The position numbers were made by a program, and so were the translations under genes. The notes beneath the pieces were generated by a model that was given only the letters and a program-made list of their open reading frames with translations, made no database searches and had not been told where the DNA came from. A stretch of 64,000 nucleotides of DNA from an uncultured Gammaproteobacteria bacterium (GTDB lineage Bacteria > Patescibacteriota > Microgenomatia > UBA12405). Positions 496 to 63,945 of the stretch are shown here, piece after piece; the first letter of the stretch is position 1; every line of letters begins with the position of its first letter. The stretch is from assembly GCA_964448705.1 (NCBI GenBank), contig CAYUZS010000004.1:20105-84104 (forward strand), given 5' to 3'.

Positions 496-508
496 AATTA
501 GAATTTAC

Positions 509-2446: not shown

Positions 2447-2497
2447 CTGCCCATTATACCATTCCGATTCAAATTAAACCTTTATTTTTCCTCTTTA

Positions 2498-12909: not shown

Positions 12910-14034
12910 ATGAAACTTTCCTTATTACAGGAGAACCTTAGTTCTGCTTTATCATCAGTTTCTCGTTTTGTTTCTTCTAAAGCCCAACTTCCTATCTTAA
13001 ACAATATTCTTTTTATAACTGATTCTGGAAGACTTAAATTATCAGCCACTAATTTAGAATTAGGAATAAATTATTGGTTGGGAGCCAAGATAGATCAGGA
13101 AGGGAGTTTCACAATTCCTGCCAAAGAAATCACTGAGTTTGTTTCATATCTCCCTTCAGGTAAAATCGATCTCCAATTAAATCCTCAATCTCTTTTGGAA
13201 ATTAACTCCGTAAAAGCTCAATCTTCTTTTACCACTGCTGCCGCCGTTGATTTTCCGACATTACCGGTTTTAGATGATAAAACTTCATTGGAAATAGACT
13301 TAAATATTCTCACTCAGGCAATTTCTCAAATTGCTTTTTCCGCCGCCTCTGATGATTCCCGTCCCATTCTTACCGCTATTTTATGTCGATTCACTAAAGA
13401 TTCATTAAGGTTGGTTGCTACTGATGGTGTCCGGCTTTCTTTAAAAGAAATAAAATTAGTTAACCCTATTGTTATCCCGGAAGGTAAAGATGAATTAACT
13501 TTTTTAGTCCCTTCACGAAGTTTAGTTGAAATTCCTAAACTTGCTAAATCTGTTTCTAAACTAAAGTTTGGTTTAAGTACTGATAGTCACCAACTAATTT
13601 TTGTTATGGAAGATTTGGAATTAGTGTCCCGTCTAATTGAAGGTGAATTTCCAAACTATCAAAGAATTATTCCCGAAACCTTTTCCACTGTCATAAGTTT
13701 AGATAAGAATGAATTTATGCAGGCTGTAAAAATTGCCTCTGTTTTTGCCCGTGAATCAGCTAATGTTGTTAAGTTATCAATCAAAAAAACTAATATCGAG
13801 GTTTCGGCTAATGCTTCTCAAATTGGTCAAAATAAAGTTTCTGTTGATGCCAAAATTGAAGGTGATGGTTTAGAAGTTGCTTTTAACTACAAATATATTT
13901 CCGATTTTCTTTCTGTTTGTCAGAGTAATGAAATTATAATCAGGCTAAATGAACCTTTAACCCCCGGTCTTTTTCAGGACAGTGCCGATCCTCATTTCAC
14001 TCACATCATCATGCCTGTCAGAATCCAGGATTAA
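12910..14034 (+). CDS. dnaN: DNA polymerase III beta sliding clamp
   Basis: 'MKLSLLQENL...LPILNNILF' is a typical DnaN N-terminus. Track ORF 12865 is an upstream extension; M16 at 12910 is the likely start. 374 aa. Confidence 0.9.
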   Translation: MKLSLLQENLSSALSSVSRFVSSKAQLPILNNILFITDSGRLKLSATNLELGINYWLGAKIDQEGSFTIPAKEITEFVSYLPSGKIDLQLNPQSLLEINSVKAQSSFTTAAAVDFPTLPVLDDKTSLEIDLNILTQAISQIAFSAASDDSRPILTAILCRFTKDSLRLVATDGVRLSLKEIKLVNPIVIPEGKDELTFLVPSRSLVEIPKLAKSVSKLKFGLSTDSHQLIFVMEDLELVSRLIEGEFPNYQRIIPETFSTVISLDKNEFMQAVKIASVFARESANVVKLSIKKTNIEVSANASQIGQNKVSVDAKIEGDGLEVAFNYKYISDFLSVCQSNEIIIRLNEPLTPGLFQDSADPHFTHIIMPVRIQD

Positions 14035-18533: not shown

Positions 18534-18555
18534 TTGATTGATTATACCAATCTTA

Positions 18556-43873: not shown

Positions 43874-43912
43874 ATTGTCACGTTAACGAGCGAAGCAGGT
43901 AAGTCAGGAACC
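43874..43912 (+). repeat. repeat family A, copy 1 (ATTGTCACGTTAACGAGCGAAGCAGGTAAGTCAGGAACC)
   Basis: 35/39 identical to copy 2 at 51765-51803; shares the core AGCAGG..GTC(T/A)GGAACC with family B. Confidence 0.7.
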
Positions 43913-43944: not shown

Positions 43945-44442
43945 TTAGTTAACCACTTCAAGTTTCTTGGGAATTATGTCAAGTTTGTCGACATTAGGAA
44001 CTGTTTTTGTTCTCATCATTTCTACAATTAACTCCCGATATTCGGTTAACAGGATTCTTGTACCTGGAGTAAGGTTAAGTTTTACTGCCTCATCGATGGT
44101 AAACCAACCAATTTCTTGGCCTTCACCTGGTCCTAAAACAAATTTTGATTCCTCATTCTTATCGACAAAAACTACATATATCCAAACATTTTCGCCTAGT
44201 GAACCCTTAGTTTTTGTTATTAATTTAAAATCCTTTAGTTCGTAACTTACTTCTTCTTTAACTTCTCTAATCAAACCTTGTTCCGGAGTCTCACCTTCCT
44301 CAATACCACCCCCAACTAATTGCCAACAGTCCGGTGAACGAATAATTGGAATATTATCCCGGTGAAATAACAACGTTTTATTGGGACTCAGGATAATGAT
44401 TTTGGCACCGTCTTTAGATTTCATATTTCTTCCTCTTAACAA
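43945..44442 (-). CDS. Nudix hydrolase
   Basis: Nudix box 'GGGIEEGETPEQGLIREVKEEVS'. Confidence 0.8.
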   Translation of the reverse strand: MLRGRNMKSKDGAKIIILSPNKTLLFHRDNIPIIRSPDCWQLVGGGIEEGETPEQGLIREVKEEVSYELKDFKLITKTKGSLGENVWIYVVFVDKNEESKFVLGPGEGQEIGWFTIDEAVKLNLTPGTRILLTEYRELIVEMMRTKTVPNVDKLDIIPKKLEVVN

Positions 44443-44517
44443 TTAATTCATCCCACAAGCATTCGTTCACCTTCAATTTTAACATTACTATAGACTATTA
44501 TTTCATTAACACCACCC

Positions 44518-44619
44518 GAGTGGAGTAGGTGAGTCTGGAACTTTTATATCTTTATAGCCCTATATCTTATTATACCTTCCTTTGTAGCTAAATTAGACAA
44601 ATAAGACATTATAAAAAAG
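44518..44619 (+). repeat. repeat family B, copy 1 (diverged, about 75% to B2/B3)
   Basis: GAGTGGAGTAGGTGAGTCTGGAAC...TAGCTAAATTAGACAAATAAGACATTATAAAAAAG; collinear with B2/B3. Confidence 0.6.
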
Positions 44620-44670
44620 AGTCTCTAAGATAACGATATTGAGTGAACAATATGATATCTCAATAATTTT

Positions 44671-45141
44671 CTATATTATTTCAAACTCTTCCAATAACTT
44701 CTTCATCTTCTCTATCTGTTTGGGAAATATAAGATAAGTAGGGAGGTCTTTTGGATAAACCCATTTAATTGCTCTAATTTCATCTTCTTGGATACCTAAT
44801 TCACTTTCTTTGCCTGTAAATTTAACAAAAAATTGTTTTCTCTCTTGTCCTCGAAATACCGGCTTGTTGTCTTTAATCTTTTGATTTATTAATTCATCCG
44901 ACCATTCATAGCAGTCTCTTAATTCACTGGCTTTGATCACTTCAAATTTATCAATTCCCAACTCTTCACTTAATTCTCTGATAACTGCTACCTCCGGTTT
45001 TTCACCTTCTTCAATCCCTCCACCGGGAATATCCCATTCATTATCTTTATAGCTACATTTTTGGACTATCAAAATCCGCCCAGGCTTATCCATTATTACA
45101 GCACTAGTACTTTGTCTGTAAGTTAAGTTATCACGGTTCAT
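44671..45141 (-). CDS. Nudix hydrolase
   Basis: Nudix box 'GGGIEEGEKPEVAVIRELSEELGI'. Confidence 0.8.
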   Translation of the reverse strand: MNRDNLTYRQSTSAVIMDKPGRILIVQKCSYKDNEWDIPGGGIEEGEKPEVAVIRELSEELGIDKFEVIKASELRDCYEWSDELINQKIKDNKPVFRGQERKQFFVKFTGKESELGIQEDEIRAIKWVYPKDLPTYLIFPKQIEKMKKLLEEFEII

Positions 45142-45614
45142 TTTGATTTCAAACTATTGTCAAAAGTCTGTATCCAACCATCCCATTTTTCATTATTCAT
45201 CTCTACTTCTTCAAAATTGTTGTCAGTAAACTTTGAAATGAAATTCAACCAAAACATATGAGCATTCGGATTTTCTCTAATCTGCCTATTCTCCCATTTT
45301 CCAGGGAATTGGTTAAATACTAATTTGGCTGCCTCTGACCCGATTCCGTTATTCCGAAATTCTTTTTTAACATAAAACTCGGAAATGGTATTTCCTTCCG
45401 TTAAAATCAGTAGGTATGAGTTTATTAAGGCAAACCCAGCAATCTTCCCATCGACTTTTATAAAATATGGATACCTATTTGGTTTTTCCCAATAAGAATC
45501 TAGGTACTTATACTCTTCCGCTTTGTCACCAATAATCTCTCTTTCATAGTCCCAAAGCATATCCCTTAGAATATTTTTATCTTTAATATCAATTTGTTCT
45601 AAATTGACTTCCAT
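45138..45614 (-). CDS. GNAT-family N-acetyltransferase
   Basis: 'ISEFYVKKEFRNNGIGSEAAKLVF' is GNAT motif A; 4-nt overlap with the downstream Nudix gene. Confidence 0.6.
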   Translation of the reverse strand: MEVNLEQIDIKDKNILRDMLWDYEREIIGDKAEEYKYLDSYWEKPNRYPYFIKVDGKIAGFALINSYLLILTEGNTISEFYVKKEFRNNGIGSEAAKLVFNQFPGKWENRQIRENPNAHMFWLNFISKFTDNNFEEVEMNNEKWDGWIQTFDNSLKSK

Positions 45615-45634
45615 AAATAATTATAGCCCAAATA

Positions 45635-46192
45635 TTGGTATATAATTATTCAGAATTATCCGAAGAATACTTCATGATCAACCAATCTATTTTAACCACC
45701 ATAAACTGGCATGGCAATAAAGTCACCTACACCTGGATCCCTACTACTAAAATTAAAAAGTACCAACCCATCCGAAACGTGATTGGTCTTTGTCTAAACG
45801 ATAATCAAGAAGTTCTAATTTGCCGTGAAACTGAAGAAGAAGGTTGGAAGTTACCCGGAGGTCGCCCTGAAGATAATGAAACTCCAATTGAGACATTAAA
45901 ACGGGAGTTAATGGAGGAAGCTGATATTGAAGTAAACAATATAAAAGCTATCGGAACCCAACGTGTCGATTTTCCTAATAATCCAAAACAATCAGAAGGT
46001 GATTTGTTCTACCAAGTACGATATTTTTGTAAAATAGAAAAGATGTTTCCTCAAACTGTAGATCCTGATACTGGAGTGCTTTACGATCGAAAATTTGTGC
46101 CTCTTAGACAGTTGAACAACTACCTAAAGTGGGGAAAAATCGGAGATGCCATAATCAATAAAGTATTAGTAATTGAAAATATAAATGACTAA
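45635..46192 (+). CDS. Nudix hydrolase
   Basis: Nudix box 'GGRPEDNETPIETLKRELMEEADI'. Confidence 0.75.
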   Translation: MVYNYSELSEEYFMINQSILTTINWHGNKVTYTWIPTTKIKKYQPIRNVIGLCLNDNQEVLICRETEEEGWKLPGGRPEDNETPIETLKRELMEEADIEVNNIKAIGTQRVDFPNNPKQSEGDLFYQVRYFCKIEKMFPQTVDPDTGVLYDRKFVPLRQLNNYLKWGKIGDAIINKVLVIENIND

Positions 46193-46721
46193 TAAAACCC
46201 GAGACTGGCAAGAACTCTCCCGGGAAGAAGCTTTTAGAAAATATTCCCGTAAAATTGAGAAAGTAATTTTCAAACTACCCAACGGTAAAGAAACAGATTT
46301 TTACATTAAAAAAGAAGGTCCAACTGCTAGTGTTTTAGCCTTAACATCCGATAATCAAATAATTATTGCCAAGCAATATCGCCCTGGACCAAAAAAAATC
46401 CTGATGGAACTCCCGGGTGGTTTTGTTGACCCAAACGAAGCACCTGAAGTAACCATAAAACGTGAGTTACTGGAAGAAACTGGTTATGAAGGTGATATAA
46501 AGCTAGTTACCACCTGTCTTGATGATGCCTACTCTACGATGGAAAGATATTGTTTTGTTGCTACTAATTGTAAAAAAGTCAAAGAAATTGAGAATGGAGA
46601 GGACGAATTTACCGAGTTAGTTTTAGTTTCACTTAAAGAGTTTAAACAAATTCTTCGAAGTGGCCAAATGACCGATGTGGAAGTCGGATTCTTAGGGTTA
46701 GATTATTTAGGACTACTTTAA
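46185..46721 (+). CDS. Nudix hydrolase (ADP-ribose pyrophosphatase-like)
   Basis: Nudix box 'ELPGGFVDPNEAPEVTIKRELLEETGYEG'. Confidence 0.8.
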   Translation: MTNKTRDWQELSREEAFRKYSRKIEKVIFKLPNGKETDFYIKKEGPTASVLALTSDNQIIIAKQYRPGPKKILMELPGGFVDPNEAPEVTIKRELLEETGYEGDIKLVTTCLDDAYSTMERYCFVATNCKKVKEIENGEDEFTELVLVSLKEFKQILRSGQMTDVEVGFLGLDYLGLL

Positions 46722-47207
46722 ATGAGTCACCAAAGATTAATTATTCTCATGGGCTTGCCGGGTTCGGGCAAATCATACGTCGCGTCACATCTCCAACAAA
46801 AATATGGTTTTATTACATTGTCCGGTGAGGACATTGCTACCAAGTTATTTGGAACTGAAAAACTGTCTGGTCAACAATATGCTCAAGTTTATAAAACAGT
46901 CCGGCAAAAAGCTTCTGAACTACTACAACAGGGATCTTCTGTGATAATTGATGGTACAAATCTCAAGAAACAATTTCGTCAACAAATTTATGACGAAGTT
47001 AAATGCGACCAAACAATTTTGATATATCTCAAAACCGACGATAATGTCGCTATGGATCGAATTTCAAAAAGAAAAAATTCTTGTTCCTCTGAAACATATC
47101 AAGCATTTAAGAACCAGATAGAGGAACCATTTCCGAAAGAAAATGCATTTATTTTGATCTCAGACAACCAGTTATTAGACAACATTGACAAAATAATAAA
47201 TGGATAA
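46722..47207 (+). CDS. P-loop nucleotide/nucleoside kinase-like protein (AAA_33-like)
   Basis: Walker A 'LMGLPGSGKSYVA'; 161 aa. Start abuts the Nudix stop. Confidence 0.55.
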   Translation: MSHQRLIILMGLPGSGKSYVASHLQQKYGFITLSGEDIATKLFGTEKLSGQQYAQVYKTVRQKASELLQQGSSVIIDGTNLKKQFRQQIYDEVKCDQTILIYLKTDDNVAMDRISKRKNSCSSETYQAFKNQIEEPFPKENAFILISDNQLLDNIDKIING

Positions 47208-47523
47208 GAATTTATTAGATAAATTAATTACCGAGTACAAACAACTCTTCGAAAACGTTTGGGAATTTGGAGGTGGTTATGGTTTTCGCTTTCATCATGG
47301 GGTTCGGGTTATGAAATATTGTCAAAAAATTGCTATGCTTCCCAGATTTAAAGACGAAAACATAAGTATTGAGGCTTTGCTAATTGCTGCCCTTTTCCAC
47401 GATATTGGTAAAATCGAAGCAATCGATAAAAATGGTCAATTAGTTTATGGTAATTATGGTGGTATTAGTCATGATGCTTTGGGAGCCAAAATCGCACCTA
47501 AATATTTTTGTTTAAAATACTAG
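47200..47523 (+). CDS. short HD-domain protein (possibly truncated)
   Basis: 'RFHHGVRV' and 'LFHDIGKI' His/Asp motifs of the HD phosphohydrolase fold; only 107 aa. Confidence 0.45.
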   Translation: MDKNLLDKLITEYKQLFENVWEFGGGYGFRFHHGVRVMKYCQKIAMLPRFKDENISIEALLIAALFHDIGKIEAIDKNGQLVYGNYGGISHDALGAKIAPKYFCLKY

Positions 47524-51764: not shown

Positions 51765-51803
51765 ATTGTCACGACAACGAGCGAAGCAGGCAAGTCTGGA
51801 ACC
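51765..51803 (+). repeat. repeat family A, copy 2 (ATTGTCACGACAACGAGCGAAGCAGGCAAGTCTGGAACC)
   Basis: See copy 1. Confidence 0.7.
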
Positions 51804-52375: not shown

Positions 52376-52702
52376 TTATTCAACATCAATTAATTTCACA
52401 AAATCAATTTCAGGTTCCTCATATGGGTGAATTGCTTTGATTGTTTCTTTTACTGCTTTAGATCTTTCTTCAGGACAGATCATTTCAATTCTAACTTCTG
52501 GCTCATGAGAAAATTCTCCAACTTTTCCAATAGTCGGATTTGAGCCTTCTTCTGATTTCCAATTACCAATCCCTTTAGTAAAAAAACATGTGTGAGTGTA
52601 ATTTCCCAAAACACCAGCCCCAGCATCTGCAGCCGCATTTATGATTGAAAAAATTATTTTTTCATCATCTGGGCAAAAGACAAAAAGTTTATACACAATC
52701 AA
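52376..52702 (-). CDS. small ferredoxin-like-fold protein, possibly CutA-like
   Basis: C-terminal 'HPYEEPEIDFVKL' resembles the CutA 'HPYEVPEI' motif; weak. Confidence 0.3.
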   Translation of the reverse strand: MIVYKLFVFCPDDEKIIFSIINAAADAGAGVLGNYTHTCFFTKGIGNWKSEEGSNPTIGKVGEFSHEPEVRIEMICPEERSKAVKETIKAIHPYEEPEIDFVKLIDVE

Positions 52703-52746
52703 TTATAACAACAAAAAACATCAGTAGAATAGGGTAATTATATCTT

Positions 52747-52860
52747 GGCGGAGCAGGTGGGTCTGGAACCTTTCTATCCTTATAACTCTGTTCCCAAACC
52801 TCTGTCTTATTCTACCCCTTCTCTGAAGCTAAATGAGACAAATGAGACAGTATAAAAAAG
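52747..52860 (+). repeat. repeat family B, copy 2 (114 nt)
   Basis: GGCGGAGCAGGTGGGTCTGGAACCTTTCTATCC...GAAGCTAAATGAGACAAATGAGACAGTATAAAAAAG. About 95% identical to B3 apart from a 12-14 nt insertion. Confidence 0.75.
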
Positions 52861-52954
52861 GGAATGGTCGATTTTAACAGGTTCTCGATTTGTAAGCCTA
52901 TAAGATGTATAATTGTTACCGATATTGTGGTAAATCACATGAAATAAAAAAATA

Positions 52955-54085
52955 ATGAGTAATGAAAGACAGTTTACTAGGATCAAACAAGAAACTTGGA
53001 GTATGGCTTCAGGAATACAAACGCGTAGTCAAGTGGTTTCTGAAATTTTTCCTGCAGGAATGGATGCTAAACAAGATCAAAACATAAGATTCTTTAGAAG
53101 TTTAGCAGGCAGCGAAACAGACATATTTCTAAAACTTTTCACTGGAAGCAAATGGCAAGCGGACGCTGAGGTGGTAAACACCAGAGTCTTAACATCCGCA
53201 AAAGTAGAAGGGGTTGTTCCGATACTAGATAGTGAATCAACGGGAAACAATTCGTTAATCATTTACCCATATGTAGAAGGAAAGTCTTTTCATTCAGATG
53301 TCAGGTCTCCATCATATACTTCAAGAGTTATAGAAAGTACGAGTAATGTCTTGAGAAGATCGATAGCTTTGGAAGGTTTTAAAATCTTTAGAATTCCAGA
53401 AACTTTTTTAAAACAATATCCATTTCCAGAGACAGTATTTGCTGAACCTATATTCAAGCAGATTAACCAAGCTTATAGCCCTTTTTGGAAGTTGCGACAA
53501 ACAATCTGTACTCAAAACCCAGGTCTCTCGATGGATAGAACACCTCGAAATGTATTAATAACAAATAGGGGTGAAATCAATCAAATTGATTTCGAGCTGG
53601 TTTATCCCGATTCACCATTATTCGATCTATCAAAACTGCTTAGAAATGGTCCGGAATCTGGAGTGGCGAATGGAATAACAATTTTAGATGCAATAAAGTC
53701 CCCAGAATTAATTTTTGGAAAGTCAAATCCTTTTTCAAAAAGTGAAGAAAGTAAATTAGTTGATCAATTTATCAAAACCACATTACCGGGACAGGATAAA
53801 TCAAAGGCCGTACAAAATTACTGGCAAGTTTCTGCTCATACGCACATTTTTTACATTTCTAAATATTTGAGAAGATATAAAGAAGTTGCCGATATTGATG
53901 TAAAAGAGAATGCTTATAGAAGACTTGTATTTCATTTTGCTGGATTATTTTCCCTTAAAGATAAATTAATGGAACCGTATTTAGGCAACAAAACACCAAA
54001 TGTTGAAACTTTAACAGGAGGAGTCGAGAAAAAAGATGTTATAAGATTATTTGATTTATATAAAACATTAGCCCAACAAATATAA
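52955..54085 (+). CDS. protein-kinase-like-fold phosphotransferase (APH/choline-kinase-like)
   Basis: 'MDRTPRNVLITNRGEINQIDFELV' corresponds to the catalytic-loop Asp and Asn plus the IDFE block of APH/ChoK enzymes. Confidence 0.5.
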   Translation: MSNERQFTRIKQETWSMASGIQTRSQVVSEIFPAGMDAKQDQNIRFFRSLAGSETDIFLKLFTGSKWQADAEVVNTRVLTSAKVEGVVPILDSESTGNNSLIIYPYVEGKSFHSDVRSPSYTSRVIESTSNVLRRSIALEGFKIFRIPETFLKQYPFPETVFAEPIFKQINQAYSPFWKLRQTICTQNPGLSMDRTPRNVLITNRGEINQIDFELVYPDSPLFDLSKLLRNGPESGVANGITILDAIKSPELIFGKSNPFSKSEESKLVDQFIKTTLPGQDKSKAVQNYWQVSAHTHIFYISKYLRRYKEVADIDVKENAYRRLVFHFAGLFSLKDKLMEPYLGNKTPNVETLTGGVEKKDVIRLFDLYKTLAQQI

Positions 54086-54089
54086 TAAT

Positions 54090-55301
54090 ATGAAAAATAA
54101 GTGCGATATTTTTATCGTAATACCCTTCTTTAATGAACAAGCCAGACTTCCAGAAATTTTAGACAGTATCCTTGAATCCGCCAAAGATAAGTTTAAGGTT
54201 CATGTAGTCCTCGTAAATCACCAAAGTACAGACAATTCTGTTGAAATAGCCAAGCGCTATTCAAGTAATTTTTTTAAGTTCCAGATAATTGAGGAGACTA
54301 TTCCTATTCCTTGTGGTGGTCAGCCAAGAAATACCGGATTGAAAGAAGCTATAAAACAAGCAGAAGAGTTTTACGACGATAATTCCATTCCCATTGCTAC
54401 CCTCGACGCCGATGTCATTGTTTCTATAAATTTCATTCCAGAAATTATTGAAAAATTAAATACTGGTTTTGACATAGTTTCTTTTAGTGAAAGATACAAT
54501 CCAAAAGAACTGGTTGATTTTGTTGATAGTCAATTACAAAAGGACCTAAGCATCAGATACTTTATTGGTTTGAATTGGATTAGGTACCAAGTATTATGGG
54601 GATTAATTGATGCTGGTGTAAAAGAAACCCGTGGACCTGGTGGTTACGCCATGAGAGCAAGTACCCTAAAAGATTTAGGTCACAAGCAACCATTTGATGC
54701 TAATGGACAACCTGTCACTGGAGAAAACAATCGTCTTGGAATAATTGCTAACAGAAAAAAGCTAAAAGTATATTGCAGTAATTATTACTCCCAAGTCCAT
54801 CCTCGCCGAGAAATTGTTTCCTGCACTAATATCACTCAAAAAGGTTATTCAAAGAACAAAGACAATGCAGAAGTATTTAAACTCGCCCGGGAAGTTGAAA
54901 GCTATCCGATTCTATCTGAAGAGCAATTAAGCAATTATTTAATAAACGGAATCAAGCGGACTATAAGGATGGTCTTAATAAGAGCCGTCGCCTACGATAA
55001 ATTAGATGATATTAACCACTGGTTTACTCATCCAATTTGGCATCAACTCATTGCTCAATCAAAAGAATTTGTAAAACAAAACCACCCCACTGAAGAGACC
55101 TTGGAGGTCATCGGGAATGGGTTTTATAACGACTTGTTCAGTTCCGTGGTTTCACAAATTGGAGACAGTGAGTTTGAAGGCTTTGTTGATTTCATTATCC
55201 ATAAAATTCCCAATAACCAAGTACTTATTAATTGGATTAAAGACAATTCACTAATAATTGATCCAGATCCAGAATTTATTAACAATGAAAAAAGAAATTG
55301 A
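54090..55301 (+). CDS. glycosyltransferase family 2 (GT-A)
   Basis: 'IFIVIPFFNEQARL', 'VVLVNHQSTDNS', DxD 'TLDADVIVS'. Confidence 0.7.
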   Translation: MKNKCDIFIVIPFFNEQARLPEILDSILESAKDKFKVHVVLVNHQSTDNSVEIAKRYSSNFFKFQIIEETIPIPCGGQPRNTGLKEAIKQAEEFYDDNSIPIATLDADVIVSINFIPEIIEKLNTGFDIVSFSERYNPKELVDFVDSQLQKDLSIRYFIGLNWIRYQVLWGLIDAGVKETRGPGGYAMRASTLKDLGHKQPFDANGQPVTGENNRLGIIANRKKLKVYCSNYYSQVHPRREIVSCTNITQKGYSKNKDNAEVFKLAREVESYPILSEEQLSNYLINGIKRTIRMVLIRAVAYDKLDDINHWFTHPIWHQLIAQSKEFVKQNHPTEETLEVIGNGFYNDLFSSVVSQIGDSEFEGFVDFIIHKIPNNQVLINWIKDNSLIIDPDPEFINNEKRN

Positions 55302-56271
55302 AAAATATATAGTTGATCCCGAAGCTTATTACCGAGATTTATATATAAATCTTGGAATCAGAGACAAGGCTGATCAATTAATTCAGTCACTCGGTTCAAT
55401 GGCAGAACCAATTAGGTATACCCATGATTTGTGGTATTCCAAAACGAAACCTGTTTTACCTGCAATTATGGCTCTAGAAGCTGGGGTTCCTCAAGATAAG
55501 GTCGCCAAAGTAGGTGCAGTAGTTGATGTCTTATGGACTTTGTCTGTAGTTGTTGATGATATTCAAGATAAAGATGAAACTCGAAGATCAAAACCTGCTG
55601 CTTGGCGAGTCTATGGTGCTGATAACACCTACCATTCCGCAGAAGCTGGTTTAGCTGCCACGGTCAAGTATTTATCAAAAGAAATTGGACCATATGCAGG
55701 GCAATCTTGTGTAGACAGTGTCAATCTAGGTATGGCATCAATTAAAAAGCATCAAGCCTTTGACTTGGCTGTCAGACCTAGTACATTGCATCAAAATTAT
55801 TGGGAACGCGACGCCTTTTTTTCATCCCTGCCAATTGAAGTATTGCTACCTGATCCAAAAGACCCTCGAAGAATTGCCTCCCTTGCATGCCTGGAGAATT
55901 ACTATATTGGCGGGCAATTAGGTAATGATATTCAAGATCTTACTAGACCTGAACCTAATGGATTATTACGGCTCAGCGATATCAAAAACGGTTTAGTAAC
56001 CATACCGATACAAAAGCTATGGAGTCAACTAGATGAGAGCGAAAAACAAACTTTTGAGAAAGTCTTTGGTCGAAAGGAGCTTGATGATTCTGGATATAGA
56101 GCAATTAAGTTAATGGTTGAAAAGTATAATCTAGCAGAACAAATTGTTATGGATATATCTGAAAGTTATAATAAAGCCATAAATCAGGCTGCTGGGGCAA
56201 TGAATCCTGATGATCAGCAAGTGTTCAAGTCACTTTGTGAAAGCCAAAAAGCAAAGTTCTTAGCAAGATAA
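55258..56271 (+). CDS. class I isoprenoid synthase-fold protein (terpene synthase / polyprenyl synthetase-like)
   Basis: First Asp-rich motif 'VVDDIQDKDETRR' (DDxxD...RR). Second motif degenerate to 'NDIQDL', closer to terpene-synthase NSE/DTE than to prenyltransferase DDxxD. Likely start at Met 55285. Confidence 0.45.
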   Translation: MIQIQNLLTMKKEIEKYIVDPEAYYRDLYINLGIRDKADQLIQSLGSMAEPIRYTHDLWYSKTKPVLPAIMALEAGVPQDKVAKVGAVVDVLWTLSVVVDDIQDKDETRRSKPAAWRVYGADNTYHSAEAGLAATVKYLSKEIGPYAGQSCVDSVNLGMASIKKHQAFDLAVRPSTLHQNYWERDAFFSSLPIEVLLPDPKDPRRIASLACLENYYIGGQLGNDIQDLTRPEPNGLLRLSDIKNGLVTIPIQKLWSQLDESEKQTFEKVFGRKELDDSGYRAIKLMVEKYNLAEQIVMDISESYNKAINQAAGAMNPDDQQVFKSLCESQKAKFLAR

Positions 56272-57147
56272 CTAAAGCCAAATTTCATGGATTCCTTCAA
56301 GTTTCCCCAATCTTCCATGGGAAACTGAAGCTTTTGATCTAACATATCCGGTTTGGGTACCATCGGGGAGCAACGCAAGTTTCTTCTCACTCAAAATTCC
56401 AGTCAGATGTACTGATGAATCAATATCTAAGTTAGTCAAGTCAAATCTAGTTGGAAATGTTGTTCCCATCTTCTCTGATCTAGAAAACTCAGAAGTGGCA
56501 AATCGTCTTACATGATCAGCCTTGATTAATCTATCTTTCTCCCATAATAGAATATGCGATTCTGTTTGTGAAAAACCATATACCATTGTCAATTCTTCGC
56601 TAAACAATCTTCCAAATTGCCAACCTCTTAAAAAGTAGGGTAATATCTCTCGATTATTCATTTTGTCCGCAGGATCTTCATAGATAAACCAATTATGATC
56701 ATGATATCCTCTCCCAGAAAAATCCAAACTAACTCCGTCTTTTATAAGTTGCCCGCTAACTCGTGCACGGGGAATCTCTATTTGCCACCTCATGTTACCT
56801 TGGTTAATTGTAACCAGTTGAGGTTTGATTTCCGGGGTAAATTGTAGCTGACAGTTTACGTCGGAAGTGTTCAATCTCAAGTTTACTCCTGATGTATCAG
56901 CCCTTAATTCCTGACCAGAAATTACAATATTTCCTTCTTTTAGGTCAGCCACACCCTGTTGGTGAATTGACGACTCTACTCCATCGGGTGAGTTAATATA
57001 AGTTGAAACTGTTGAAGGATTTATGCCAATTCTTGGGTAAAATATACTTATTATCTTCCATCCATTCTGATCTTGAGCATCCACATATTTCCACTCTGTG
57101 TGAGCAATTGGGTGAAGGGAGGAATCTTTGTTAATCTCGTAATTCAT
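56272..57147 (-). CDS. CrtC/AttH-like (hydroxyneurosporene synthase family) putative hydratase/hydrolase
   Basis: 'FSGRGYHDHNWF' resembles the recalled AttH/CrtC family block 'G.GY.DH.WG'; beta-rich, 291 aa. Confidence 0.4.
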   Translation of the reverse strand: MNYEINKDSSLHPIAHTEWKYVDAQDQNGWKIISIFYPRIGINPSTVSTYINSPDGVESSIHQQGVADLKEGNIVISGQELRADTSGVNLRLNTSDVNCQLQFTPEIKPQLVTINQGNMRWQIEIPRARVSGQLIKDGVSLDFSGRGYHDHNWFIYEDPADKMNNREILPYFLRGWQFGRLFSEELTMVYGFSQTESHILLWEKDRLIKADHVRRFATSEFSRSEKMGTTFPTRFDLTNLDIDSSVHLTGILSEKKLALLPDGTQTGYVRSKASVSHGRLGKLEGIHEIWL

Positions 57148-57201
57148 AGGTGTTTATAAATTGTGTGCAATTATACGATATTTCGCGCTATAATTCATAC
57201 T

Positions 57202-57891
57202 ATGAACTCATTTCAAGAATTTAACCGATTGTGGACTCAAAAGAAGGTCAAAACTCCACTTTTTATCTTTATCGGTGGTTATTGCGGGACAGGGAAATCA
57301 ACTTTAGCCAAGGCTCTTCAGGAAAAAATTGTTGAATCTACTATTGTTCCTACTGGAATTGTCCGTGCTACTTGTAAACCATTTTTGAAAAATATGGGAG
57401 AGATTTACGGATGCCACACCTATCGACTAGGGCAATTCAGTCAAAACGATATTGAATTATTTGCAAATTATAAAAAGCAGTCATCAATATTAAATGAGCC
57501 TATTAAAGAATTATGTAATTTTGCCACTTCAGAAATGCAAAACTTAATTATTGACGGTAACCACATTTTTCCTGAGTTGGTAAATTCTATCGAAACAAGT
57601 CTGAAAATTGATGTTTATATGAAAACTTCTGATGAACTACAGTTAATAAAAAACATGACCGACATTACCCATCCTCGTATTATGAATGAAGTCGAGATGG
57701 AAACAGCAAAGAAATTGCACCAAATGACAGCGACAGAAATTAGTCAATCAAAAACAATGTTTGAATATAACCAATCTAGTCTGGCAGTTGAATATGTTGA
57801 AAAAGAGTTAGGTGTTTTACTCGAAAATATCGTGGGTGTCAGAACCACCAGTAGAATAGGTGTTTCTGCTACTTCGTCTCTGGTTTTCTAA
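57202..57891 (+). CDS. P-loop kinase-like protein
   Basis: Walker A 'IGGYCGTGKSTLAKAL'. Track start 57163 is probably an extension; Met 57202 precedes the conserved block. Confidence 0.5.
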   Translation: MNSFQEFNRLWTQKKVKTPLFIFIGGYCGTGKSTLAKALQEKIVESTIVPTGIVRATCKPFLKNMGEIYGCHTYRLGQFSQNDIELFANYKKQSSILNEPIKELCNFATSEMQNLIIDGNHIFPELVNSIETSLKIDVYMKTSDELQLIKNMTDITHPRIMNEVEMETAKKLHQMTATEISQSKTMFEYNQSSLAVEYVEKELGVLLENIVGVRTTSRIGVSATSSLVF

Positions 57892-58827
57892 TAAAACCTT
57901 TTTAGTTAATTGATTGTATTCAAGCTTCGGTTTTTTATATCTCCGGTAATCACCTTCAGCACCATCCAATCCTTTTTCCAGATAGCTGTTTAAAAAGTCA
58001 ATAAAGTTAGCCTCATTTATTTGGTTTTCTTCAAACCTGTCTTCAAAAGTTTTACCAGGGTGAGCCATTATTTTTACGAAGGGAAGCTCGATTACTTTCT
58101 TAACTATCTCCTCATTGATTGGCAAGGTGTCAAGAGGCCATGGTACAACCTTGTCAAAAATATATCCAAGCGCGTATTTGGGAGCTTGTTCAAGAGGAAT
58201 ACTAAACTTAGTTGCAAAAGCTTCGAGATTTATTAGGTTAAAAGGTGCCAACAACATACCCAAATGCGGTTTGCTAACATAATCTCTTCTTATTTCGAGA
58301 ATTTTTCCAGTTCTTAGGTCAACTCGTGAAGCGTTTTCAAGAGTTATATATTTTAGGATTTTGTCTTTCTCATCCTCGGTCTTATTCTTCCAATTCATCC
58401 ATTCTATCTGGTCACTTTTCTGCAAAAACTCAATAATCTTATTGATTGAGTCAGATACATAACCACTTCTAGTCTTGTTTAATTCGTTTACTAAAGTGCT
58501 AATTTTCTCTCGGTATTCTTCACTAATACTATTTTCGACGTTGTCGTACACCAGAACATCAAGACCACCGCCACATTCAATTTCAACTCCCGGTATTAAT
58601 GAAATGCCACTTTGTATCGCCAACTGGAAGTTTTCTTCTGTATAAGCAGCAATAGAATTATGATCAGTAATCGAAACCAACTTAAGTCCTTTAACTACTG
58701 CGGAATTTATTAAATCAGTAGGAGTATTCTTTCCGTCCGAAAAAATGGTATGGCTTTGAAGATCAAAGTCACTAGAATTTACTTCTTCGGGAGCGTTTAT
58801 AAGAAACTTATTCAGTACGTTAGTCAT
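57817..58827 (-). CDS. PHP-domain (polymerase/histidinol-phosphatase-like) metal-dependent phosphoesterase
   Basis: 'LQSHTIFSDG', 'VSITDHNSI', and C-terminal 'GGSDTHD' His/Asp ligands. Confidence 0.7.
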   Translation of the reverse strand: MTNVLNKFLINAPEEVNSSDFDLQSHTIFSDGKNTPTDLINSAVVKGLKLVSITDHNSIAAYTEENFQLAIQSGISLIPGVEIECGGGLDVLVYDNVENSISEEYREKISTLVNELNKTRSGYVSDSINKIIEFLQKSDQIEWMNWKNKTEDEKDKILKYITLENASRVDLRTGKILEIRRDYVSKPHLGMLLAPFNLINLEAFATKFSIPLEQAPKYALGYIFDKVVPWPLDTLPINEEIVKKVIELPFVKIMAHPGKTFEDRFEENQINEANFIDFLNSYLEKGLDGAEGDYRRYKKPKLEYNQLTKKVLLENQRRSSRNTYSTGGSDTHDIFE

Positions 58828-58930
58828 GGCTATATGTTATCACCCTAAAGAATCTTTCAAAATATCCAGACATGAAAAAAGATGAATTGCATTTCGGTAA
58901 AAAGTTTTTCTACGGATTCCTTCGGATTCA

Positions 58931-59030
58931 GCGGAGCAGGTGGGTCTGGAACCTTTCTATCCCTATAACCCTATGTCTTATCCTACCCCTTCTTTGAAGC
59001 TAAATGAGACAAATAAGACACTATAAAAAG
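58931..59030 (+). repeat. repeat family B, copy 3 (100 nt)
   Basis: GCGGAGCAGGTGGGTCTGGAACCTTTCTATCCCTATAACC...GAAGCTAAATGAGACAAATAAGACACTATAAAAAG. Confidence 0.75.
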
Positions 59031-59093: not shown

Positions 59094-61232
59094 TTATGCT
59101 GTAACCTTGGGTTTGTTGATAAAATCCATAAATTTAGTCATTTCAAGTTCCTTATTCTGAAACCAGTTTGTTGACCAAATTCTATATACAACATAACCCA
59201 TATGTTCCAGTTCTTTTTGTCTGTACATATCATACGCATAGGCTTCTTCTGATTGGTGGTACGACTTCCCGTCACACTCTAAAACATAGTTATGCCCATT
59301 GTACTTTATAACAAAGTCTAATCTGAATCCTCCTACTTTATGTTGCTGTACAACATCTTCCTTTTTGAATTTGTCCAACAATAATTCATATACTTCCTCC
59401 TCAAAAGGAGATTCTGAAAGACCATCATCATCAAATATAAGCTTCGGCTTTTCAAAACTTTGGAGTTTCAGTTCTGACAAAATACCTTCTGCTAGTACAC
59501 TATCTTTGTTTGAAATCGCTTCTGCGTAAGCCAAGTAAGCATACAATATTCCTCTTTTATTATTTCCACCTTCGCCTTTGATTAGTTCGGGATAAGACAC
59601 ATACTTTTCTTTTGGTATTGATGTACAAACATACACTTTATTCTTAGCCCTAGTAATTAAAACATTTAGTAGTTTATATCCCTCAATTCTATTTATTCTT
59701 GCAAAATTCTGAGAAAACTTACCATCAACACCATAACCATAAGTAGTGGAAATGATAATTATGTCCTTTTCGTCACCTTGTATGTTTTCAAGGTTTTTTA
59801 TGAAGAGTCCACTCTCTTTAAGGGCCAAATATTTTGTCAAAAAGTCAGAATCTGACTCTGCTACTTTATTCAAAGACTCGATGATTAAATTTCTTTGGTT
59901 GATATTAAAAGTAGCAATACCGACAGAAGGATACTTATTATTTGTGTTTAGTTGTATTTCATCTTTAATAATTCTGATAATCTCAGCAACCTCTGTAGGG
60001 TTGGTATTAGATTCATATCTGCCGTTCACAGGAATAAATTTTATTGGCGTATATTCTGATAACGCAGGAAAAGAAACTAAGTTTCCACCATAAAAAGCAG
60101 CATTTGAAAATTCAATAAGTGCCGGATGATTAGATCTATAATGATAATCCAAAGATGATTTATTAATATCTCTAAGATTTGAAGCATACTGAAGTAATGA
60201 TTCACTATCTGCTAACTCATCTTGTTCATTGTCATATTCTTCAAACTCATCATGAGCTTCTTCAAAGGTATTATTCGAACTTAAAAAGTAGTTAGAAGGG
60301 GGCATTTGATGCTCATCTCCGGCAATTATTTTATATTGACCTCTAATCAGACATGCGAACGTATCGGATATTCTTAATTGACTAGCTTCATCGAAAATTA
60401 TGACATTAAACAATCCCTGCTTTAGGGGTAATATGGCATTTGCAGCACTTGGATTTGTTAAGATTATCGGGAAAAGAGAAGTAAATAAGTCGAAATCTTT
60501 TTCGATTATCTTCCTTAACGAGTTCTTTGGACCAGAATTATTTTTTCTTAAGTTATAAAGGGTATTAAAGTTACCAGGGTATGAACTTAGTCTCAACCTT
60601 CTTTTAGTGTTCCACTTTGACTTAATCTGTTGGATCTGTTTTTCTTTAAGTTTGTTATATACAACGGATAACTCGACCAACTTCGCATCTGATTTATTGA
60701 AACCCACAGTCGATTTACTGTCGAAGTTTAGGAGTGACTTTTTAAAATACCATGCCATAAACACATTTTTCCAGTTCTCTGTAGGTATTTCTTTTAAAGC
60801 ATTAATGATATTTATTTCTGTTTCTGTTTTATTGTCTGAAAGATAATGCCTCCAATGGTGAAAATTTTCATATGAATCAAAGTTATTAATTACGTTTGTA
60901 ATGTTGTCATATATCGATAAATAATATTTATTTAAAGAATCAAAATCCTTAAAATCAGTATATTTTTTGTATGTGAAGCTATAAATTTTAGTATCAAGCA
61001 AAGTAACTAATTTTGAATCATTAGTGTTCAATTCTTTTTCAATTTTTTCTATTTCTTTAATTTTTTGATATTTTTTATTTAAATTCTCAAGAACACTTAC
61101 TGCATGTTCGTTCAGATCTTTAAAAGATACAAACGTATTTTTTTCAGGAAGTAATTCGATTGATAAGTATTTCTTTATTAAAGGCGCATCTTCCTTAAGC
61201 GATTTTAATGTGTCTACAATTTCTTGTCTCAA
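59094..61232 (-). CDS. SF1 (Upf1/DNA2-like) helicase C-terminal region fused to DUF559/Vsr-like endonuclease-fold domain; Walker A absent, probably a 5'-truncated gene remnant
   Basis: Motif II 'VIIFDEASQ'; 'LNVLITRAKNKVYV' motif VI; C-terminal 'DGKSYHQSEEAYAYDMYRQKELEHMGYVVYRIWSTNW'. No GxxxxGK[ST] anywhere in the 270 aa before motif II. The ORF starts 15 bp from the IS end. Confidence 0.5.
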   Translation of the reverse strand: MRQEIVDTLKSLKEDAPLIKKYLSIELLPEKNTFVSFKDLNEHAVSVLENLNKKYQKIKEIEKIEKELNTNDSKLVTLLDTKIYSFTYKKYTDFKDFDSLNKYYLSIYDNITNVINNFDSYENFHHWRHYLSDNKTETEINIINALKEIPTENWKNVFMAWYFKKSLLNFDSKSTVGFNKSDAKLVELSVVYNKLKEKQIQQIKSKWNTKRRLRLSSYPGNFNTLYNLRKNNSGPKNSLRKIIEKDFDLFTSLFPIILTNPSAANAILPLKQGLFNVIIFDEASQLRISDTFACLIRGQYKIIAGDEHQMPPSNYFLSSNNTFEEAHDEFEEYDNEQDELADSESLLQYASNLRDINKSSLDYHYRSNHPALIEFSNAAFYGGNLVSFPALSEYTPIKFIPVNGRYESNTNPTEVAEIIRIIKDEIQLNTNNKYPSVGIATFNINQRNLIIESLNKVAESDSDFLTKYLALKESGLFIKNLENIQGDEKDIIIISTTYGYGVDGKFSQNFARINRIEGYKLLNVLITRAKNKVYVCTSIPKEKYVSYPELIKGEGGNNKRGILYAYLAYAEAISNKDSVLAEGILSELKLQSFEKPKLIFDDDGLSESPFEEEVYELLLDKFKKEDVVQQHKVGGFRLDFVIKYNGHNYVLECDGKSYHQSEEAYAYDMYRQKELEHMGYVVYRIWSTNWFQNKELEMTKFMDFINKPKVTA

Positions 61233-61310: not shown

Positions 61311-61559
61311 ATGCCAACAATTAATAAAGAAGTCAAACAAGAAATTTTAGATAAAGTTAAATCAGGTAAAACAGTTAAAGAAATAGCTACCCAATACGGT
61401 GTTTCTGATCGAACCATTTACGCTTGGTTGAAAAAAGGAGTCAGTGATAATGTTTCTATCCTGGAATTAGGAAAATTCAAAAAAGAAAATCAAATCCTTA
61501 AAGAAATCGTTGGTGCTTTAAGTGTGGAATTGGAGAGATTAAAAAAAAAGACCAGATGA
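61311..61559 (+). CDS. IS3-family transposase OrfA (HTH)
   Basis: AAGGAGG Shine-Dalgarno 7 nt upstream; 'TVKEIATQYGVSDRTIYAWLKK' HTH; leucine-zipper-like C-terminus; A9 run at 61541-61549 just before the stop. Confidence 0.8.
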   Translation: MPTINKEVKQEILDKVKSGKTVKEIATQYGVSDRTIYAWLKKGVSDNVSILELGKFKKENQILKEIVGALSVELERLKKKTR

Positions 61560-61650
61560 GCCATCTTTTTGTCACTGGTTACTAAATGTTGTCAAAACCA
61601 GATTAGATTCTAAATTAATTAGTTTTAGTAAAAACCAAATCATTAAATTA

Positions 61651-62436
61651 TTGGGTGTTTCTAAAGCCAATTACTTTTACAAATCAATTCAGCCATCAAA
61701 AGACGAGATATTAAAAGAACAGATTTTATCAGTTCTGGAATCAAATCCTAGTTATGGTCACAGAAGGATTGCTCTAGCTCTGAGTATCAACAAAAAGAGA
61801 GCTAAAAGAGTCATGAAGCTTTATGGGATTAAACCTTACAAGCGGAAAGCCAGATGGAGAAAGCGAAGAGATGAAAGACGGCCGGAGGCCGTCTTCTCCA
61901 ATCAAATTAAAGGTTCTTTCCCAATTGTCCCCAATCTTACTTGGGTGTCTGATTTTACTTATCTTCGATTTAATTCAAAATTCATTTATCTGGCTACCTT
62001 TATGGATTTGTACACCCGAGAGATTGTAGGCTGGAGTTTAAGTGCTCGCCACACCAAAGATCTAATCATTAACGCTTTCTTTGATGCTTTTGAAAACAAA
62101 GGTGTTCTGCCTAAATTTGTTCATTCGGATCAGGGATCGGAATACAACTGTTTTGAATACACCAAACTAATCAGTGATTTAGGAGTCACTGTATCCATGA
62201 GTAAAAAAGCTTCTCCCTGGGAAAACGGTTATCAGGAATCATTTTATGATAATTTCAAAACTGATTTAGGATTGGAGTTTGACCGATTTAATTCTGTTGG
62301 TGAATTTGTCGAAGCCATTCATCAACAAATTAATTACTACAATCAAAGAAGAATCCACACCACTCTGAAGATGTCCCCGGTACAGTTTAAACAGCAATAC
62401 CTTTTACGCCAAATTCAATTTCACAAATCGGTCTAA
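61651..62436 (+). CDS. IS3-family transposase OrfB (rve/DDE integrase core)
   Basis: 'WVSDFTY', 'HSDQGSEY', 'ENGYQESF' DDE-region blocks. Its frame is open back to 61543, overlapping the orfA tail. Confidence 0.8.
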   Translation: MGVSKANYFYKSIQPSKDEILKEQILSVLESNPSYGHRRIALALSINKKRAKRVMKLYGIKPYKRKARWRKRRDERRPEAVFSNQIKGSFPIVPNLTWVSDFTYLRFNSKFIYLATFMDLYTREIVGWSLSARHTKDLIINAFFDAFENKGVLPKFVHSDQGSEYNCFEYTKLISDLGVTVSMSKKASPWENGYQESFYDNFKTDLGLEFDRFNSVGEFVEAIHQQINYYNQRRIHTTLKMSPVQFKQQYLLRQIQFHKSV

Positions 62437-62454: not shown

Positions 62455-63359
62455 GAATCAACGTCAAAAGAGGTCTTCGAGCCAAATGCGAAGCCGGATG
62501 GCGCCCAGGATCAGCTCCTGTGGGCTATATCAATCGGCTCACTGAAAATCGAATTGCCTATATTGATCTAGACCCAGAACGTGCCCCGATCGTTAAAGAA
62601 ATCTTTGAAAAAGTAGCCTATCAAGGTCATAGTGGCAGAACTATAAAATATTGGCTAGATAAAAGTGGATTCATAACTAGAGCTGGCAAAAGAATGGCTA
62701 TTAGTGAGGTTTATCGGGTATTAAGAAAACACTTCTACTACGGAGAGTTTGAATTTCCCGAAGACAGTGGGCATTGGTATCACGGCAAACATCCACCGAT
62801 AATAACCAAAGAACTTTATGATTTAGCTCAAAAACAAATTGCAGTTCCACCCAAAGAATGGAACAAAAAGTCTTTCCCGTTTAAGGGATTATTCAAATGC
62901 GGTCATTGCGGAGGTTCGATTACAGCCGAGGACAAATACAAGAAATTAATAAGCGGTAAATTCCGCCGTCATGTATATTATCACTGCGCTAGAACCATCG
63001 ATTATGATTGCGACCAACCCTACATTACCGAAGATGATTTGGTCCGGCAATTATTAGCAAAAATTAACGAAATTGAATTTAATCAAAAAGCCGTTGATGA
63101 AAAAATGAAACATGAGATTGAGCGATATCATCGCCTTCGATCCGATGTACTGCACCAAGAAATGTTTGAAAGGCAACTTGAAGTAATGGATTATCCAATC
63201 ATTAAAGAAAAATCACCAGAAGAGCGCATTAGAGGATATGTGATCCATGTTTTGAAAACTGGATTCTCAGAAGAAAAACAGGAAATACTGGCATTATTTA
63301 AGACCAGATTCATTTTAAAAGATAAGCAAATAATTAAAACCGAAGAAAACCCGATTTGA
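62455..63359 (+). pseudogene. large serine recombinase, 5'-truncated (recombinase domain + zinc ribbon + coiled-coil retained; resolvase catalytic domain missing)
   Basis: Frame is open from the IS boundary: '...INVKRGLRAKCEAGWRPGSAPVGYINRL' is the resolvase-to-recombinase linker. The zinc ribbon is 'CGHCGGS...YYHCAR'. No resolvase domain lies on either side of the IS. Confidence 0.6.
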
Positions 63360-63858: not shown

Positions 63859-63945
63859 TGGCGGAGGGAGGGGGATTCGAACCCCCGAGCCTTTTACAGC
63901 GCACGCTTTCCAAGCGTGTGGAATGAACCACTATCCGATCCCTCC
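63859..63945 (-). tRNA. tRNA-Ser (anticodon GGA), class II with long variable arm, CCA encoded
   Basis: Reverse complement folds by hand: acceptor GGAGGGA/TCCCTCC, anticodon stem CACGC/GCGTG with loop TTGGAAA, variable arm about 15 nt, T-arm GGGGG-TTCGAAT-CCCCC, then GCCA. Confidence 0.8.

Follow-up and report, generated by a model that had tools for sequence, protein, structure and literature searches.

Gene content and conservation of the module

The analysis of a 64,000-nucleotide stretch of contig CAYUZS010000004.1 (the window, in whose coordinates all positions without a locus name are given) focuses on six consecutive genes, g1 to g6, which encode a protein-kinase-like small-molecule kinase, a family 2 glycosyltransferase (GT2), a polyprenyl-synthase-family protein, a double beta-barrel protein of the AttH/CrtC superfamily, a P-loop kinase and a PHP-domain phosphoesterase (Table 1). 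We tentatively interpret them as a native module for the ATP-dependent building or tailoring of a prenylated, isoprenoid-type small molecule in a clade of Shapirobacteria-type bacteria of the Candidate Phyla Radiation (CPR), an interpretation that we place somewhat short of an even chance. The module brings known enzyme folds together in a previously undescribed combination within a CPR lineage, and nothing in it falls outside known enzymology.

The strand order from g1 to g6 is + + + - + -, and the ATG starts of g3 and g5 were judged from orthologues. Genes g2 and g3 overlap by 17 nucleotides (nt), the stop codons of the convergent g3 and g4 abut, 57 nt separate the divergent g4 and g5, and the convergent g5 and g6 overlap by 75 nt at their 3' ends. 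The latter overlap measures 27 to 78 nt at every locus examined (57817-57891 in the window, 12537-12614 in L002, 12534-12572 in L003 and 6240-6266 in L004), an unusual yet conserved arrangement. A scan for promoters and terminators gave signal no better than in shuffled sequence. The initial annotation had described six genes lying between two repeats, B2 and B3, and both the open reading frames (ORFs), at exactly their given positions, and the two repeats were recovered. A hydropathy check predicted all six proteins to be soluble, which argues against a membrane polyprenyl-phosphate carrier system; a glycosyl-carrier system of this type was rejected as a candidate on hydropathy.

The gene set recurs in no fewer than six further metagenomic contexts (L002, L003, L004, L085, L090 and L091), where gene order and strands are kept and the flanks are different and unrelated. 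The block aligns with positions 7615-13562 of L002 at 82% nucleotide identity over 5956 nt (blastn), and the amino acid identity of the module proteins ranges from 80-90% in L002 through 57-73% in L003 and L085 to 33-47% in L090, L091/L092 and L004. Thus, the genes that the initial annotation had proposed to look for as a conserved neighbourhood do occur together elsewhere, and their co-occurrence is far beyond chance. Each protein family comprises 8 to 10 clusters among 5.8 billion proteins, and one relative carries the name Candidatus Shapirobacteria; the module appears confined to a small group of CPR bacteria of the Shapirobacteria type. A scan of JGI metagenomes with the g3 alignment yielded one further close locus. 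In GTDB, a scan based on the g4 alignment brought up distant AttH-like genes, 21-31% identical, from Dehalococcoidia, Asgard archaea and actinomycetes, and among the matches listed none of the other five module genes lay near these AttH-like genes. Moreover, the still more distant locus L094 holds a g4 homologue (31% identity) convergent with a g3-like gene that keeps GQIGNDLQD. The persistence of this convergent pair marks g3 and g4 as the core of the module.

Other genes were observed ahead of the module in two of these contexts. In L090 (positions 22-1042 and 2597-3307), the module is preceded by two adjacent UbiA-family fragments, which probably represent one prenyltransferase gene broken by a frameshift, and by the gene of a second AAA_18 P-loop kinase (236 amino acids, aa); g5 of this module encodes only 153 aa. 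In L002, a contig from a close relative, positions 384-3305 carry a lycopene cyclase, a phytoene synthase (SQS_PSY) and an Amino_oxidase/phytoene-desaturase gene present as two ORFs (220 and 268 aa). A full-text literature search turned up no publication that connects phytoene synthase with the Candidate Phyla Radiation.

Table 1. Coordinates of the module, the repeats and the neighbouring features in the window
Feature	Coordinates	Strand	Size	Assignment or remark
g1	52955-54085	+	376 aa	Small-molecule kinase, protein-kinase-like (APH/ChoK/NahK-type)
g2	54090-55301	+	403 aa	GT-A family 2 glycosyltransferase, predicted soluble
g3	Gene 55285-56271 (ATG); ORF 55258-56271 (TTG)	+	Gene 328 aa; ORF 337 aa	Polyprenyl-synthase family
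g4	56272-57147	-	291 aa	AttH/CrtC-superfamily double beta-barrel (predicted)
g5	Gene 57205-57891 (ATG); ORF 57163-57891 (GTG)	+	Gene 228 aa; ORF 242 aa	2-phosphoglycerate-kinase-family P-loop kinase
g6	57817-58827	-	336 aa	PHP-domain phosphoesterase, TrpH/YciV type
Conserved six-gene block	52897-58842			From blastn, and tblastn of the six proteins, against L002
Repeat B2	52748-52862	+		Family of about 110 nt; ends 35 nt to the left of the conserved block
Repeat B3	58930-59029	+		Same family as B2; 88 nt outside the right edge of the block
Repeat-family sites	43890-43912, 44520-44617, 51781-51803, 52748-52862, 58930-59029; L002 4679-4792	All +
5.4-kb segment	47508-52896			Not in L002; replaces the 3' part of the HD gene (47200-47523)
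Methylase genes of the segment	47627-49204			Two N6/N4 DNA methylases
Low-GC ORFs of the segment	49201-51104			Two ORFs without assignment, GC 0.26-0.28
yidC	9462-10244	-		Replication-origin neighbourhood
dnaA	11204-12559	+		Replication-origin neighbourhood
dnaN	12865-14034	+		Replication-origin neighbourhood
Large ORF and adjoining ATPase gene	14886-21009	-	1215 aa; 817 aa	ORF without Pfam match; TraG/VirB4-type P-loop ATPase
NUDIX hydrolase run	43945-47523			Four-gene run plus GNAT, AAA_33 kinase and HD genes
Helicase-nuclease gene	59094-61232	-		Hhe/PDC-S37, probably a fragment
IS3-family transposase	61311-62436	+		orfA and orfB
Serine-recombinase fragment	62520-63359	+		Without catalytic domain
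tRNA-Ser(GGA)	63859-63945	-		Found by ARAGORN and Rfam

A polyprenyl-synthase-family protein with an altered second motif

The protein encoded by g3 matches PF00348 (polyprenyl_synt) at 55.3 bits (cut-off 27; E = 7.4e-15) in a match limited to residues 77-173, and a g3 profile aligns with 1wy0, the geranylgeranyl diphosphate (GGPP) synthase of P. horikoshii, over residues 55-279, or about 225 residues (E = 3e-14). The first Asp-rich motif and its arginine pair (D91-D92-I-Q-D95...R100-R101) show no variation in the eight g3 orthologues. The second motif, N214-D215-x-x-D218 (NDIQD), is equally invariant across the eight, and the DDxxD of chain-elongating synthases is absent. The alignment with 1wy0 further shows KRVRP replaced by KPVLP, GQ by HQ, DDxxD by NDxxD and KGKKT by NGLVT, with GKT either deleted or read as RD. 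As far as the sequence can tell, g3 appears to be without the basic residues that bind isopentenyl diphosphate (IPP) and the diphosphate. NCBIfam equivalog models score the protein at no more than 39 bits against cut-offs of 275-600. It is reasonable to regard g3 as unlikely to be an ordinary elongating synthase; the loss of the IPP site together with NDxxD points to a likely prenyl transfer or ionisation with an acceptor other than IPP.

The initial annotation had read g3 as a class I isoprenoid-synthase fold with DDxxD...RR and NDxxD motifs, closer to a terpene synthase than to a chain-elongating enzyme. The fold and both motifs stand; the terpene-synthase likeness does not, given the polyprenyl_synt match and the missing NSE/DTE triad of terpene synthases. 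Specifically, no terpene-synthase Pfam family was found at E ≤ 0.1, the triad position +4 holds Asp, and the Glu at +8 is lacking in P0008 and L094. Reading the second motif as NSE/DTE was rejected because this Glu is not conserved.

The AttH/CrtC-like barrel protein

The g4 protein gave no direct match in Pfam or NCBIfam (E ≤ 0.1) or among PDB sequences, and its placement was approached through a structure model. An AlphaFold2 (AF2) model built from eight orthologues reached a predicted local distance difference test (pLDDT) score of 85.7, and all 16 PDB matches that Foldseek returned with E ≤ 1e-3 belong to one superfamily, AttH/CrtC. The best of these is AttH itself (2ich; E = 4e-11, query template-modelling (TM) score 0.71), and the other fold matches include the Fsa2/Phm7/CghA pericyclases, kievitone hydratase and 25-phosphosteroid lyase (PDB 9fzn). 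This was further strengthened by a g4 profile search of 1.8 billion representatives that gathered 195 remote relatives. Ten of these were scanned, and the N-terminal lipocalin domain of CrtC was recognized in seven, with six exceeding the Pfam cut-off. The relatives reached by the g4 profile include proteins P0021-P0028 (1e-17 to 1e-10), which bear PF07143 above threshold. In addition, one g4 orthologue is labelled "AttH domain-containing protein" in UniRef. The g4 family also has an invariant motif of its own, GxGYHDHNWF. The earlier CrtC/AttH-like assignment is therefore upheld at the superfamily level, by the predicted fold (2ich, TM 0.71) and transitive profile similarity only.

The pairing of a polyprenyl-synthase-family protein with a CrtC relative raises the question of a carotenoid or terpenoid glycoside pathway, in which g3 would act as a divergent, CrtE-like GGPP synthase, g4 as a CrtC-type 1,2-hydratase and g2 as a CruC/CruG-type enzyme on the new tertiary hydroxyl made by g4, with g1, g5 and g6 as accessories. 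An archaeal GGPP synthase is indeed the closest solved relative of g3, g4 belongs to the CrtC superfamily, and in L002 the module is preceded, at a distance of 4-7 kb, by genes for a phytoene synthase, a phytoene-desaturase type enzyme and a lycopene cyclase. However, similarity to the L002 crt proteins revealed no crt genes in the 64-kb window, and none were called in the flanks of L003, L004, L085, L090 and L091. The weak match of g2 to NCBIfam CruG (1.3e-6), which could be taken in favor of such a pathway, amounts to 27.6 bits against a cut-off of 600 and reflects generic GT2 similarity only. Furthermore, g3 has substitutions at its IPP-binding residues and always opens its second motif with Asn in place of Asp; carotenoid substrates are membrane-bound whereas the six proteins are predicted soluble; and known carotenoid glycoside pathways assign no role to kinases such as g1 and g5 or to a phosphoesterase such as g6. 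On balance, we consider a carotenoid or terpenoid glycoside pathway improbable.

Kinases, glycosyltransferase and phosphoesterase

The four remaining proteins fall into the families that the initial annotation had assigned to them, with differing clarity. For g1, the match to the Pfam APH family (PF01636) remains under its cut-off (E = 0.021; 15 bits against 23.2), and two orthologues have precomputed PF01636 matches. Across nine orthologues the N-lobe residues K60 and E72, the catalytic loop D194-R-T-P-R-N199 and the Mg-binding motif Q210-x-D212-F-E (IDFE) are invariant. The AF2 model is of low confidence (pLDDT 66.7), and its top Foldseek matches are all NahK, ethanolamine/choline kinase, YtaA or APH structures, with TM scores of merely 0.2-0.35 because the model is poor. 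The DRTPRN loop, the IDFE motif and these top matches agree with the APH/ChoK fold named in the annotation, and g1 is accepted here as a protein-kinase-like small-molecule kinase.

The g2 protein is a clear GT2 member by its match to PF00535 (1.2e-16; 61.5 bits, cut-off 23.3) and its intact, invariant DxD motif (D106-A-D108). It has no transmembrane segment and carries a C-terminal extension of about 170 aa without domain match, and none of its NCBIfam matches (ArnC, CruG, HpsE and others) comes near the respective cut-off, so that they reflect generic GT2 similarity only. The g5 protein was recognized as a P-loop kinase by its Walker A motif and by NCBIfam kinase-family matches, namely 2-phosphoglycerate kinase (8e-10; 38.6 bits, cut-off 343) and mevalonate-3-phosphate 5-kinase (1.7e-3; 18.2 bits, cut-off 250); its invariant motifs are GGYxGTGKST (Walker A), PTGxVRA and GNHxFP. 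The PHP assignment of g6 holds with PF02811 above cut-off (1.6e-8; 35.5 bits against 26.4) and PDB relatives 3e0f, 7ug9 and 2yb1 from the TrpH/YciV group, which includes adenosine 3',5'-bisphosphate (pAp) phosphatases and RNase AM. Matches to the NCBIfam models for RNase RNM and for 3',5'-nucleoside bisphosphate phosphatase lie under their cut-offs. The metal motifs DH (D55-H56), E82/E84, AHPG (H256) and GGSDTH (D330-x-H332) of g6 are all invariant, and its motif I reads Q24-S-H26, not H-x-H.

These relationships, particularly the proximity of g6 to pAp phosphatases and the 5'-3' exoribonuclease RNase AM, bring into view a role without any isoprenoid product, in the metabolism of nucleotides, sugar phosphates or RNA ends. 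In such a role g1, g2, g5 and g6 would handle a phosphorylated sugar or nucleotide, and g3 and g4 would have been recruited for diphosphate or ligand binding only. The sugar-1-kinase NahK among the top fold matches of g1 and the resemblance of g5 to 2-phosphoglycerate kinase and adenosine 5'-phosphosulfate kinase would fit such a role, as would the NUDIX, HD, HIT, Ham1, LigT, Q_salvage and His_Phos_1 neighbours seen at several loci. These neighbours differ from locus to locus, however, and genes of this type (NUDIX, HD, HIT and others) are common across CPR genomes. Moreover, the most deeply conserved pair of the module is g3 and g4, not the kinases or the PHP protein, and g3 strictly conserves a complete motif for prenyl diphosphate and Mg2+. 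A purely nucleotide-type or sugar-phosphate function is thus regarded as unlikely.

Proposed function of the module

Returning to the isoprenoid-tailoring interpretation, the analysis established to which families and folds the proteins belong, the state of their motifs, their predicted solubility and their strict co-conservation; which class of substrate is used, in what order the steps run and what each reaction is are proposals built on these observations. In this scheme, g3 would bind an allylic prenyl diphosphate through DDxxD and RR and transfer the prenyl group onto, or ionise it toward, a non-IPP acceptor. The prenyl chain would then be the target of g4, which would either add water to a C=C bond, for which CrtC and kievitone hydratase are precedents, or eliminate phosphate in the manner of 25-phosphosteroid lyase. 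The product would be glycosylated by g2, while g1, g5 and g6 may add or remove phosphates and so activate a hydroxyl or salvage a prenol into the diphosphate. Isoprenoid genes lie within 4-7 kb of the module in two relatives, the crt genes of L002 and the split UbiA ORFs of L090.

Several observations weigh against this proposal. Nearby isoprenoid genes were found in only two of the seven contexts, and g3 showed no specific sequence affinity to either ComQ or Ord1. The third Asp of its second motif and the invariant K53 and K55 would make residual elongation possible. Intergenic gaps of 4-96 nt leave no room for an acceptor gene such as one for a ComX-like peptide. The AttH/CrtC superfamily includes pericyclases and lipid-binding proteins and is therefore not limited to isoprenoid enzymes. 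In addition, the nearest relatives of g6 act on nucleotides and RNA, and NUDIX, HD, HIT and His_Phos genes abound around the module, so that nucleotide or sugar-phosphate chemistry would also fit.

A bolder form of the proposal holds that g3, as a soluble prenyltransferase with the first Asp-rich motif and NDxxD, and g4, as an AttH-fold hydratase or lyase, carry out an undescribed two-enzyme chemistry that, with g1, g2, g5 and g6, would yield a new prenylated, glycosylated or phosphorylated metabolite or would turn salvaged host prenols into usable diphosphates in these ultra-small CPR bacteria; we think this doubtful. On either variant of this bolder reading, no dedicated pathway for isoprenoid tailoring or secondary metabolism would have been defined earlier for Microgenomates. 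CPR bacteria are seen as metabolically minimal and as relying on hosts for lipids and cofactors. If the isoprenoid-tailoring interpretation is true, the module would represent a defined small-molecule capability in these bacteria, for instance a signal, a glycolipid-like compound of the cell surface or a route for prenol salvage. It would likewise add a new enzyme pairing both to the short list of non-elongating prenyltransferases with a polyprenyl-synthase fold and to the diverse AttH/CrtC fold. A module for ordinary GGPP supply or nucleotide housekeeping, by comparison, would be of merely local interest.

Flanking repeats and genomic surroundings

The presence of yidC, dnaA and dnaN, which mark a replication-origin neighbourhood, identifies the window as chromosomal DNA and places the module about 40 kb from the origin. 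The composition of the module (GC 0.362, GC at third codon positions (GC3) 0.292) matches that of the housekeeping genes (0.361 and 0.302). By comparison with L002, a 5.4-kb segment immediately upstream of the block replaces the 3' part of the HD gene. It contains two methylase genes, two further ORFs that are probably the restriction component, a HIT gene, an ORF of 178 aa, a CutA1-like ORF and repeat B2. The four low-GC ORFs of this segment (the two methylases and the two others) have a GC of 0.279 and a GC3 of 0.18.

Over roughly 110 nt, the repeats B2 and B3 agree at 90-95% of positions; positions 44520-44617 hold a third copy. The 23-nt repeat core GCGGAGCAGGTGGGTCTGGAACC occurs five times on the plus strand with no more than three mismatches, and shuffled sequences give none. 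Copies of the B type (about 110 nt) hold an internal inverted repeat, TGTCTTAT...ATAAGACA; in the window, four of the five copies precede the start of a minus-strand gene by 27-104 nt, and several copies adjoin synteny breaks. Contigs assembled from short reads of the same strain (Logan) terminate within B2 and B3. A gathering-threshold Rfam scan of the window returned tRNA-Ser only, and an E-value scan of the B2 region (52700-52960) returned none. Since Rfam and ARAGORN find tRNA-Ser only, the repeats are not remnants of tRNA or transfer-messenger RNA, nor a known RNA family. Their consensus folds into two modest hairpins with almost no covariation. In L002 a single copy lies 2.8 kb from the module, with none at the module edges, and L003, L004, L085, L090 and L091 contain no copy at all.

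The initial annotation had taken the six genes for unexpected cargo in a mobile, repeat-bounded cassette. Such an accessory cassette would have entered a variable island by horizontal transfer and would either modify antibiotics by phosphorylating and glycosylating them or serve in defence. In its favor, B2 and B3 form direct repeats around the block, the region has restriction-modification methylases, an Hhe/PDC-S37-like helicase-nuclease, an IS3 transposase, a serine-recombinase fragment and tRNA-Ser, and methylase and Mrr-type genes also occur in the downstream flanks of L002 and L003. Yet the repeats sit 35 and 88 nt outside the syntenic block, in non-syntenic DNA, and are absent around the module in relatives; the module has housekeeping GC and GC3 while the adjacent methylase segment is clearly foreign; and the upstream NUDIX and HD synteny is common to L002 and the window. 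PADLOC matches none of the six proteins, resistance-family models all score under threshold, and scans of viral contigs returned nothing. The recombinase genes near the module are limited to the IS3 transposase and the recombinase fragment, 2.5-4.5 kb away. We therefore set the cassette idea aside as highly improbable: the module is native and chromosomal, at the edge of a variable, defence-rich region, and the repeats are part of the variable DNA.

Further features of the window were recorded. Its GC skew has strongly negative values as far as about 46 kb and values near zero beyond. The large ORF and the TraG/VirB4-type ATPase gene that adjoins it may belong to a type IV secretion or conjugation-like apparatus. 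The NUDIX run upstream of the 5.4-kb segment is partly syntenic with L002, with amino acid identities of 79% for NUDIX_43945, 92% for NUDIX_46185 and 82% for the HD gene product. The helicase-nuclease matches PADLOC PDC-S37 at 4.5e-102, but the match spans only positions 701-1341 of the 1550 in the model, so that the protein is probably a fragment. The IS3 ORF, used as a query beyond the window, returned short Logan contigs only.

Comparison with known systems

The g5 protein resembles the 2-phosphoglycerate kinase family, which includes the mevalonate-3-phosphate 5-kinase of Thermoplasma, in its Walker A, PTGxVRA and (E/D)GxHxxP motifs. It differs from that family in scores far under the cut-offs, and it has no ATP-cone or other extra domain. 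The g4 protein shares its predicted two-barrel fold, and a transitive homology to PF07143 proteins, with the superfamily of CrtC, AttH, kievitone hydratase, 25-phosphosteroid lyase and Fsa2, several members of which have isoprenoid double bonds, tertiary alcohols or the phosphates of such alcohols as substrates. Its identity to the solved AttH/CrtC members is no more than 14%, and at 291 aa it is shorter than their usual 320-380 aa. In Sterolibacterium denitrificans, a 25-hydroxysteroid kinase and an AttH-fold 25-phosphosteroid lyase together achieve the ATP-dependent dehydration of an isoprenoid side chain (PMC8449060, PMC11061730). This pair provides a precedent for a dedicated small-molecule kinase that is paired with an AttH-fold lyase, with a resemblance to the module at the fold level only; unlike the module genes, the genes for the steroid kinase and lyase are not clustered (PMC8449060).

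For g3, the best sequence and profile match is to short-chain trans-isoprenyl diphosphate synthases, represented by 1wy0, with which it shares the type of first motif and the RR pair. It departs from 1wy0 in the Asn that opens the second motif, in the changes from KRxRP to KPVLP, from GQ to HQ and from GKKT to GLVT, and in the loss of GKT. Non-elongating members of the same fold offer a further comparison. ComQ needs NDxxx or GDxxx at the position of the second motif, and replacing the Asn with Asp drastically cuts its geranylation activity (PMC5331326), while Ord1, XiaM and PalQ keep the first Asp-rich motif, carry a pseudo-second Asp-rich motif (pseudo-SARM) and do not elongate with IPP (PMC12510300). 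Like ComQ, Ord1, XiaM and PalQ, g3 combines a predicted soluble polyprenyl-synthase fold and an intact first motif with N-D-x-x-x in the second, and the apparent loss of its IPP site is consistent with non-elongating enzymes such as ComQ and Ord1. Unlike this class, g3 keeps the last Asp (NDxxD), and the relationship appears no closer than a shared superfamily, as also seen in its alignment with Ord1 (9v4g), which covers only residues 79-113 around the first Asp-rich motif. The partners differ as well: in place of a peptide or indole-pathway partner, the module supplies an AttH-like barrel, a GT2 enzyme, two kinases and a PHP protein. Overall, the comparison suggests the all-alpha prenyltransferases of the ComQ/Ord1 type as the best and closest precedent for g3.

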